A DNA stretch of 62,137 nucleotides, counting the filler, from Hausera hauseri (lineage: Eukaryota), in NCBI GenBank assembly GCA_046269625.1. It is 10 parts of 10 records of this genome, joined end to end, with 100 filler letters (N's around TTAATTAATTAA, not from the genome) between each part and the next. Parts side by side here need not be neighbours in the genome. Positions count along the whole stretch, not along the records: positions 27,332 to 38,797 come from JBJURY010101098.1; 9 more parts are not named here. One strand, written 5' to 3'. Positions within the stretch are counted from its first letter, which is position 1. Every line of letters begins with the position of its first letter. Made by a program: the position numbers and the translations under genes. The notes under the pieces are model-generated. The model saw only the letters and a program-made list of their open reading frames with translations. It had not been told where the DNA came from and made no database searches. Below, one piece after another: positions 29,003 to 31,452 of the stretch.

Positions 29003-31452
29003 TTACAATTTTCTCAGCGTGTTGACTGTCATTTTCTCACATTTCTCCTCCCTGAGCGGCATCCTCGGAGGAGTCCATTGCGTCAGAAGAGGTGGCGCCC
29101 AAAGTTTTAGGTCGTCTTAACTGATTCATTCTTTCGGGCAGGTCTGTTGGTGAATTTCGATGTTCTCGATTGGTTACTGGGCTTATTTCCAAATTATAAC
29201 TATAATAGGGTTTGATCCGAACAATTCATGTGTAACTCCCATCAGAATAATATTTCAATTCTGTGTCCTCTGCCCGACATACTGGGCATGTCGTTTTTCC
29301 ATTGTCGAGAATCCGTTTCTCCAGACAATCTCGACAGTATTTGTGGCGGCAATTATGGTTGTCTAATACCACATATCCTTGCCTCAAATTTGCGTCGCAT
29401 ACAGGACATTCGTTATTATCTTTGTCCCAATCATCTCTGTCTAAGTCGACTTGAATGGTTAGTTCGATGGGTTTAAACACAAGTCTATCTCCATCTTGGT
29501 ACAGGTATCCGTGTATTACCTTTTGTTTAGGGTTAATTGAACTTTTACGTGTGTCACAGTCCACTTGTATCAGGGTCAAATCCGCAATACGATCCTTGTC
29601 TAGGTCGGGAATCCTTCCTTCTATTTTATATTTTTGGTATTGTTTTTTCAGCAATATTCGAATTTGTTTATCCACATGTACTATTATTTTTCCTGTCCTC
29701 TTCGAACGAAAAATTGATGTGAGGTAAGTTTCAAGTGTAGTGTTTTCTCCTACAAAGGTTTTTCGAAGACTTCTCCTGCCGGAGCAATTTTGATGAAAAA
29801 CATGGCATCCTTTATTATCTTTTTGCCTTGTAATATTCGGTGGTTACCAGAATTCTGGGAAAATCTTGGACTGTTCTACAATGTACGTATCCTTTTATTC
29901 TTTTACCTATTAGGGCATTAATTTTCGTTATTATGGGATTCCTAATTCCCTTTCTAAACGGTTTTATCTTTTGTGGGGTACTTGGCCTGTCTTGTTGGTT
30001 CTCCACTTCTTGTTCCTCATCTTCCCTTTTCTTCTTAAATAGATAATTATAAATGGATAACGTCTTCTTGGGCTGGGATTTTTTTTCTAACTTTAGCTTT
30101 TTAATTATTGTTTCTGATTTTGGTTCCTCTGAAGACTTTGATGTTCCCTCCAATATCTTACCCTTCTCTTTGATCGTCTGTAATTCCGTTTTACTTCTCT
30201 GTTCTCCTTTTGGTTCTGATACTGCAATTCTAAGACTATGCTTGTCTGTTGGCTGGACAGTTCGGATCGGGAAGTAAGGCTTGATGCTTTTTCTATATCT
30301 GTCATCTATTTGCTTGGGTTTCAGAGAACTACGTAAATTGTATTAAGGGTTTCTAAGAGCCCATTCATGTTCCCATTTCAATGTCTTATACATTTCCTGT
30401 ACATGCTTAAAACGTTGGCTGGCCGTTAGGAGTCTTGGAATTCTGTTTAAATCACTGCTCATCGCTTCGACCATTAGTTTAAAGAAAGCTTCTGGTGCGG
30501 TCGGTCGATTCCTTCCTTGCACGGTTTACTTCATCCGTTCTTGGACTATTGGATGAGTGGCTATTTCCCTAAGTCCGGCAATATTTGCATCGGCTATTTC
30601 TAATAGCTCGATCTCTCGTCGTACATTGTATCCAGCTAACATACAGCCGTAAAGACAATGGTCTAACTCTGAACGGACTTGCTGGATATCTTTTCCTCTT
30701 ATGAGCTGGTCTCTTCTCAAACCGGTTACTTCTGCGTATGACTCTTGGACATGTTTCCGGCGGTTTATAACTGTAGAATATATTTCAGTCCCATCTCTTT
30801 CTCTAATAGATATTTCGATGGGTATTTCATATCCATCATCTCCTCTGCCACAATTTATTGCTATAATTCTTATGTTGCGACCATCTTTGACTAGCCTATA
30901 TGACTGACGATGTTCGTCCTTTTCTAGCTCGGTTGGAGTTTGTTCAAACTGTAGAACTGACAAGCCTAAGTTGCAGTTCTCTCTGTATGTCACTTCAAAC
31001 ATAAGTTTGACAGGAAGAGTTGCTACTCTAAATTCCAGACCATAGTGGATACTTTCTAAGCCCTGTCTATTTATTCTAAACGTACTAAACAGATATTGAT
31101 GCCCTTCATTGGAATTCCACGGTTGACCTTCTACTCTGTAATATAGTTCTCCGTCGGCTAGGTGTATGTATACATCTTGAGTTTTAATAGTTCGTTCTGG
31201 AATCAGTTCCTTTAGTGAGTATGCTCTTGCTTGATTATTTTCACGCATTGCGTAAAGGTAAAGGGTTCGATTTTCTTCTGTTATACCTTTTAGGTCACTG
31301 GGAATTTCGGTTACCTTTGAAAATTCAATAAAAGTTTCTGCTTGGAGGGCGTCGGTTATGCGTCGATAGATAGATTTTGATTTTGGTATAAATACTGTCG
31401 CATGTTCCTTTAGGAATTTGTCGACACTAATTCGGCTGATCATACTTACCAT
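29003..31452 (-). pseudogene. Accessory ORF: unknown N-domain, degenerate DEDDh (REX4/ISG20-like) exonuclease, linker, C3HC4 RING
   Basis: 31452-29815 is one frame with isolated stops. IIAINC...ISI...G.EIY...VTGLR..L..GKDI.QV..EL...LYG.MLAGYNV...LREIA. The RING follows after a frameshift. Homologue at 55590-56879. Confidence 0.65.
29226..29675 (-). pseudogene. C3HC4 RING finger domain
   Basis: CPVC-x13-CRHKYCRDC-x12-CPVCR. Confidence 0.85.

Follow-up and report, generated by a model that had tools for sequence, protein, structure and literature searches.

A selected domain with a predicted exonuclease fold of ISG20/REX4-like type, lacking most catalytic residues, in the last gene of a gypsy-type retroelement with a gB-type envelope

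To our knowledge, the function is known for very few of the accessory genes that invertebrate LTR elements carry. Among the described ones are the ORF3 genes of the rotifer LTR retrotransposons Juno and Vesta, and of Terminons, which encode a DEDDy exonuclease (Rodriguez, Kenefick and Arkhipova 2017, PMC5408684). Passages on these elements place the exonuclease genes after pol and describe their residues as intact (PMC5408684, PMC6431247, PMC5718144); in passages of PMC5408684, the ORFs have all the invariant residues and replace env.

An exonuclease fold that has lost its catalytic residues is described in PML, which combines a RING finger with a DEDDh fold (passages of PMC10123124), and according to the abstract of PMC13659232, this domain binds RNA and ssDNA. 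In PML-I, the domain (PXL/CDE) works as an exonuclease in some lineages, and in others it is a pseudo-exonuclease that binds nucleic acids (PMC10123124 and PMC13659232). As for the elements themselves, the main text of Chary and Hayashi (PMC13524379) describes HSV/gB-type GAG-ENV-POL errantiviruses, and the words "exonuclease," "nuclease," and "accessory" are absent from that main text. The passages on Burro, a giant gypsy element of planarians, in PMC6431247 name no exonuclease domain.

We analyzed a stretch of 62,137 nucleotides from Hausera hauseri (the window), which consists of ten contig pieces joined by N-run linkers; pieces on either side of a linker are not genomic neighbors. (Each of the nine linkers, between 6331 and 56979, is 100 bases long, with N runs on both sides of 12 bases that contain stops in all frames.) Five of the pieces carry diverged copies of one retroelement family. 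All of these copies are decayed, and their reverse transcriptase (RT) pieces are 80-86% identical. The main features of copy 3, followed by the accessory gene of copy 5, are:

36735..38797 (-): decayed gB-type env (PF24664), upstream of pol; the contig ends at 38797, and gag is absent from this piece
32897..36712 (-): decayed pol with protease, RT, RNase H, plus integrase, in Ty3/gypsy order
31555..33000 (-): decayed membrane-protein ORF after the integrase, with a hydrophobic stretch, a beta-rich ectodomain, and a transmembrane helix (31728-31651)
30898..31452 (-): N-terminal domain of the accessory ORF, predicted double-stranded beta-helix; one invariant His, with no H-x-D/E there
30361..30879 (-): pseudo-exonuclease domain, ISG20/REX4-like DEDDh fold; one in-frame stop (30526-30528)
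29815..30360 (-): charged low-complexity linker of the accessory ORF; in-frame stop at 30342-30344, and the frame breaks near 29815-29756
29037..29756 (-): C-terminal part with a C3HC4 RING finger (29408-29277; Pfam zf-RING_2, E 1e-8, above the cut-off)
29041..29053 (-): polypurine run and then TG, overlapping the ORF's final codons; no other purine run reaches 11 in 27332-29100
55632..56879 (+): accessory ORF of copy 5, with the N-terminal domain and the pseudo-exonuclease; four stops, and the contig ends before any RING

The domain order of pol is that of Ty3/gypsy elements carrying an HSV/gB-type env, and copies 1-3 all contain PF24664 (gB-like class III env; best E 2.2e-29). These are the features shared with the HSV/gB-type errantiviruses, as their main text describes them (PMC13524379): a Ty3/gypsy pol with a gB-type env upstream. 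As to gag, paired LTRs, and a tRNA primer site, the contigs end inside env, and only the purine run plus TG is visible. The run at 29041..29053 is likely the polypurine tract and start of the 3' LTR, and we annotate it as putative. We also noticed membrane-protein modules downstream of integrase at three places in the window (33000-31555 (-), 54100-55484 (+), and 43960-43036 (-)). The module is more diverged than pol (38% identity, with a pN/pS of 0.63) and has no clear Pfam family; it could be a second surface protein.

The accessory ORF of copy 3 (31452 to 29815, minus strand) follows pol and is the last gene of the element. It is broken by stops and by a frame change, so that its exonuclease and RING parts are in different frames. 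The accessory ORFs of copies 3 and 5 are 50% identical across 391 aligned residues, with three stops in 546 codons of copy 3 and four in 395 codons of copy 5. A related protein, P0004, is a single uninterrupted ORF of 870 amino acids with a RING above the Pfam cut-off. P0004 is 42-43% identical to copies 3 and 5. It matches the window at 31425-30202 and again at 29756-29040 (46% identity between 29037..29756 and its residues 637-869, by tblastn). Because one polypeptide matches both segments, the RING at 29408-29277 and the exonuclease domain are parts of one gene. In both copy 3 and P0004, which are the two sequences from which the fusion is known, the RING has all eight zinc ligands in RING spacing (a Pfam match above the cut-off plus a pattern match). 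Also, the C terminus of P0004 (QGGEM) is the peptide encoded by the window's purine run, which therefore suggests that P0004 is the terminal gene of an element too. The exonuclease-fold domain is thus one module of a longer protein, with a predicted cupin-like domain before it and a RING after it.

For the N-terminal domain, Pfam gave no family and the ESM Atlas gave no named family. Modeled alone (pLDDT 78.6), it had weak Foldseek matches, and nearly all of those listed were cupins or 2OG oxygenases (best E 7.3e-4, TM at most 0.50 over the query). The H-x-D/E...H metal triad of the 2OG-Fe(II) oxygenases and cupins is absent: across 17 rows there is one invariant His, without Asp or Glu two residues on, as judged from the alignment rather than by superposition.

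The earlier note had recognized a DEDDh exonuclease in the spacing of short motifs. The motifs it quoted (IIAINC, ISI, VTGLR, GY, and LREIA) are indeed present on the minus strand within 30879-30361, as is IIGINCG in copy 5 at 56250-56270. Pfam found zero families in the domain at E 10. But three of the four weak matches in a sequence search of the PDB were DEDDh enzymes (SDN1, DnaQ, and PolC), and a profile of the two copies found DnaQ at E 0.0027 (HMMER). In the ESM Atlas, the first three clusters carry RNase_T at 0.89, which we take as a lead only. An AlphaFold model of the domain, built from a 16-row family alignment (pLDDT 74.5), had human ISG20 as its best Foldseek match (E 2.3e-7, TM 0.74 over the target). 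Superposition on ISG20 (VIA) gave Z 17.2 and rmsd 2.5 over 158 aligned residues, and the next fold matches were ISG20L2, Pan2, SDN1, and DnaQ. The predicted structure therefore has the DnaQ-like fold of ISG20/REX4-type DEDDh exonucleases, and the spacing that had been noticed earlier corresponds to a real DEDD-fold match. The comparison to REX4 and ISG20 stands for the fold, with ISG20 as the best match, but not for a domain standing alone like a copy of REX4, as the domain is in the middle of a longer protein with extra domains.

A word-indexed protein search with copy 3 alone found nothing among 1606 candidates, and with alignments it found only P0004, P0005, P0019, and P0027. A full HMMER search returned 20 proteins: four degenerate (P0004, P0005, P0008, and P0018), ten with an intact site, and six REX4-like. 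Scanning metagenomes gave 164 pattern matches, which reduced to 16 loci with intact sites, two of which reach the RT. In viral contigs, there were six pattern matches and no relative. Combining the proteins from the search, P0027, and ORFs from 10 of the 16 loci (the other six are duplicates or are cut short), the full D-E-(E/D)-H-D site is kept in 21 related rows, several of which are near-copies. The intact-site proteins, where they are long enough, share the same N-terminal domain. The RING was not found in the degenerate proteins P0008 and P0018, nor, by pattern, in any of the 16 intact-site loci, most of which are short.

Aligned to these relatives, the catalytic positions of the window copies are:

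30853..30861 (-): ExoI position of copy 3, A-I-N where intact relatives have D-x-E; gap-free register from relatives
56256-56264 (+): ExoI position of copy 5, G-I-N; gap-free register from relatives
30613..30615 (-): ExoII position of copy 3, Glu; intact relatives have Glu (18/21) or Asp (3/21)
30412..30429 (-): ExoIII of copy 3, L-T-A-S-Q-R where intact relatives have H-x4-D; the six residues are identical in copy 5

At the ExoII position, copy 5 has Ile and P0004 has Met. At the His and Asp positions of ExoIII, copies 3 and 5 have Leu and Arg, which bears out the earlier view that no ExoIII H...D is present, and P0004 has Leu and Cys. Four of the five catalytic residues are lost in copy 3, at least four of the five positions are non-catalytic in both window copies, and P0004 lacks all five. 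The His base is present in all 21 intact relatives and absent from all five degenerate rows that reach ExoIII. By comparison, P0018 keeps the ExoI Glu and the last Asp. The invariant family Arg after the first hairpin (R227) is retained.

The earlier note had also claimed that the D-x-E of ExoI was replaced by N-C-G. Both acids are absent, as claimed, but the register was off by two. In 18 of the 21 rows with an intact site, the first Asp precedes a hairpin Gly by 23 residues. Carried over without gaps, this spacing sets D-x-E against A-I-N for copy 3 and G-I-N for copy 5, two residues before N-C-G. Furthermore, C-G-R-G-D-D-G of copy 3 aligns with C-G-S-G-D-D-G of P0009. The register score for copy 3 is 15.6 for A-I-N versus 3.6 for N-C-G, and the A-I-N/G-I-N register is best for four of the five sequences of the degenerate branch; P0004, which has A-I-N at ExoI, is a near tie (0.3 versus 2.1 for N-x-G). 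The structural alignment begins by pairing model residue 188 with residue 6 of ISG20. If the catalytic residues of ISG20 are D11 and E13, as we take them to be, then continuing without gaps leads to A193 and N195 of the model. The models were built from family alignments of 16-17 rows, and the register in them is thus not independent of the alignment. The other register, with the Asp on N as in the earlier note, is favored by HMMER alignments to SDN1 and DnaQ and by one MAFFT run. Both ExoI acids are missing whichever register holds.

We also built a phylogenetic tree from 24 of the 38 rows, rooted on four REX4-like rows. (The tree omits the degenerate tandem domains, a divergent single domain, near-copies, and P0005, which is of half length.) The degenerate and intact element rows are together at 100/100, and copies 3 and 5 are with P0004 at 99/99. 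P0008 joins them at 95/90 on a long branch, and P0018 is unplaced; a possible grouping of all five degenerate rows has support of 75/90, with P0008 and P0018 on long branches. The REX4-like rows, which are only those that our search returned, are separate (100/98 and 100/100), and the window domains are not nested among them. Because the outgroup is intact, the direction of change is from intact to dead. Two unnamed proteins, P0013 and P0014, have three to four tandem REX4-like domains, most of them without catalytic residues.

Did the element keep the domain after it lost catalysis? Across 168 codons, the domains of copies 3 and 5 are 48% identical, with pS of 0.755 (saturated), pN of 0.311, and pN/pS of 0.41 (bootstrap 0.33-0.51). 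The codons differ at 0.64 of third positions versus 0.29 and 0.30 of the other two. The pN/pS of 0.41 is conservative, because decay after insertion inflates pN, although the protein-guided alignment biases the ratio slightly in the opposite way. Constraint on the domain is weaker than on RT (0.16) or integrase (0.23). Among copy 3, copy 5, and P0004, 52 of 173 residues of the domain are identical. The catalytic loss predates the decay, because the uninterrupted P0004 shares the losses and because the copies are still 48% identical despite saturated synonymous sites. So, purifying selection continued after catalytic loss. This agrees with two proposals of the earlier note: the substitution came before the decay, given that P0004 is uninterrupted with the same residues missing, and the domain is a selected pseudo-nuclease, given the pN/pS between the two window copies. 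P0004, the one uninterrupted close relative, lacks D-x-E too, and with the fold match found, neither of the outcomes that would have refuted the earlier note was seen. Whatever its job, we are confident that the domain is a selected pseudo-nuclease. It is hardly credible that it is a neutral relic, a decayed gene that has merely not vanished yet: the stops in both window copies and the long branches in the tree would fit, but the identity at saturated synonymous sites, the excess of third-position changes, and the 870 open codons of P0004 with the same losses would not, and the codon comparison largely refutes the idea. (Run X1, with 5229 records on 28900-33000 in 30/30 bins, may be the source sample and is not counted as evidence; 40 of its 2503 differences are listed, and none of those 40 are in codons for catalytic positions.)

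The two intact-site loci that reach pol show where the exonuclease gene resides. In L015, a polyprotein more than 3200 residues long carries a gB-type env, proteases, RT, RNase H, integrase, and a membrane module; the intact-site gene comes next. In L016, pol, a second protease, and a membrane module precede the intact-site gene. This is the same layout as in the window, and the window RTs are 44-54% identical to those of L015 and L016, versus 32-37% to another RT in the window. Thus, the exonuclease gene is a regular accessory gene of this lineage. And with 21 intact rows and two loci reaching pol, an active-looking accessory exonuclease became a pseudo-nuclease in one branch. Membrane modules are also found among the relatives at L015:1-9657, L016:1-4773, L013:1-1512, and L002:3-1679. 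Beside such modules are extra aspartic-protease domains (in L015:1-9657, L016:1-4773, and L002:3-1679), with three before the RT in L015 and one after the integrase in L016. Small coiled-coil ORFs adjoin the exonuclease gene at L012:588-1166, L013:1773-3058, and L015:11607-12041; L013 has two similar ones in tandem.

What might the dead domain do? Since a RING finger follows it, it may be part of a ligase adaptor rather than a cutter. As our preferred reading, a possibility that we would not call probable, we propose that it is an RNA-binding adaptor through which the RING, as a ubiquitin ligase, would reach a ribonucleoprotein of the host or the element. The element would have carried, ancestrally, an active ISG20/REX4-like exonuclease; catalysis would have been lost in one branch, part of which would have gained the RING later. 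The dead domain would still bind RNA and would thereby tether the ligase to the ribonucleoprotein. The target, we guess, would be a silencing or sensing factor. Our proposal fits with the closest folds (ISG20, ISG20L2, SDN1, and Pan2), which act on RNA 3' ends, and PML is a precedent, as its RING accompanies a DEDDh domain that binds nucleic acid after losing catalysis. The domain's charge argues against it: the net charge is +4 in copy 3, +7 in copy 5, and +2 in P0004, which falls inside the range of the rows with an intact site (-10 to +7) and does not exceed that of most single-domain REX4-like rows (+4 to +12). Also, the dead domain is kept without a ligase, as P0008 and P0018 have no RING. 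These two proteins fit with a form of the decoy role that the earlier note suggested: without a ligase, the domain would bind RNA 3' ends, whether of element transcripts or of small RNAs, as a decoy or cap, and would keep host nucleases or silencing away from them. The action of the closest folds on RNA 3' ends would suit a decoy too, and passages of PMC5408684 raise a silencing role, citing Maelstrom and EXD1 as inactive DEDD RNA binders. However, nothing in our data ties the domain to small RNAs, its charge is not raised, and a decoy leaves the RING of the closest uninterrupted relative to be explained. We consider a decoy doubtful. The RING speaks for a ligase adaptor no less than for a decoy.

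We also considered that nucleic-acid binding was lost along with catalysis, and that the fold is a scaffold or mimic that binds a host protein or packs on the cupin-like domain; with the RING, it would be the substrate-recognition domain for a protein target. This would explain why basic charge did not rise. It would also explain why residues that are fixed in the branch and differ from the intact rows (E208, F319, H357, and W359, as seen in three close degenerate rows) are away from the former active site; these could mark a protein interface instead. The N-terminal domain, which also lacks a canonical metal motif, is similarly constrained (pN/pS of 0.36 versus 0.41 for the exonuclease fold), and its weak fold matches include a domain of vaccinia C16 (rank 12, E 1.8e-3), which is a protein-binding immune antagonist. 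On the other hand, the invariant R227 is kept, and the Arg at the ExoIII Asp position in both copies would suit phosphate binding, although P0004 has Cys there. On balance, a scaffold seems somewhat unlikely. That the domain is still an enzyme, with a rearranged non-canonical site, is very improbable: copy 3 keeps the ExoII Glu, and the branch has fixed Glu residues at two positions close by (E208 and E291), but copy 5 has Ile and P0004 has Met at ExoII, the five degenerate rows that reach ExoIII are without a His base, and the last Asp is Arg or Cys. Returning to the RNA-binding adaptor, it could be extended to the whole lineage: the elements would carry an ISG20-like exonuclease as a counter-defense, and in one branch it would have become a PML-like device turned against the host, a dead nuclease that recognizes silencing or sensing proteins bound to RNA and, by its fused RING ligase, marks them for degradation. 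We present this as speculation that is probably wrong in at least some part.

The likeness to PML is an analogy only and does not imply homology beyond the fold. PML-I is a host restriction factor with a TREX-like domain and an N-terminal RING within an RBCC, while ours is an element gene with an ISG20-like domain and a C-terminal RING. The family resembles the rotifer ORF3 in that an LTR retrotransposon has, after its pol, a gene for a 3'-5' exonuclease of the DEDD superfamily, and where passages of the rotifer paper note a change from DEDD to DEED, most of our intact relatives have Glu at ExoII (PMC5408684). Unlike the DEDDy enzymes, the proteins described here are of the DEDDh type, with a cupin-like N-terminal domain, in elements where env is also present, and one branch is dead and RING-fused. 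At ExoIII, the intact relatives have His rather than the Tyr of the rotifer type (compared by description, not by aligning the sequences). ISG20 (PDB 1wlj) is the best fold match, over 158 residues, and REX4-like proteins are among the profile matches. But identity to ISG20, ISG20L2 (PDB 7yw5), and REX4-like proteins is just 12-13%, four of five catalytic residues are absent, the branch is separate from the REX4-like proteins (100/100), and the genes here encode extra domains. As in L015, Burro has env between gag and pol in one polyprotein, and it too has ubiquitination-linked accessory domains, but a different set (BIR, BCL2, MATH, and ankyrin), according to passages of PMC6431247.

We found no paper on a gypsy-element exonuclease gene that is DEDDh, cupin-linked, or RING-fused; this coverage does not extend to subscription papers, Repbase notes, or the supplements of PMC13524379 and PMC5408684, and the supplements may list such elements. 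What is new here is the cupin-like domain before, and the RING finger after, the exonuclease-fold domain. The family bears on the question of element-encoded antagonists of small-RNA or RNA-sensing defense. It offers natural pairs with intact or dead sites, and with or without a RING, on one two-domain scaffold, so the question of function is open to direct biochemical tests. It also shows that gag-env-pol gypsy elements behave like complex retroviruses, with several 3' accessory genes.

Other sequences in the window include a decayed piece of a protein-primed family-B DNA polymerase (38898-42929 (-); PF03175, E 2e-8) on its own contig piece, which is presumably Polinton-like. We considered the polymerase (41833-42300) as a part of the element or as the source of the domain, and rejected this because it is on a different contig piece. 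The stretch at 21208-21963 (-) matches the C terminus of PSME4, a proteasome activator (E 2.1e-15), and may be a captured host fragment; an unrelated RT (18134-18892) lies about 2.3 kb away on that piece. An ORF at 8706-9329 (+) has a weak chromodomain match (E 1e-4, below the cut-off) and is perhaps the end of another element's integrase. A long purine-rich simple repeat of the GACA/GAGA type, broken by N gaps, occupies 13100-16130, and there are short direct repeats in three copies at 49633-49883 (77 bases) and 39824-40175 (65 bases).
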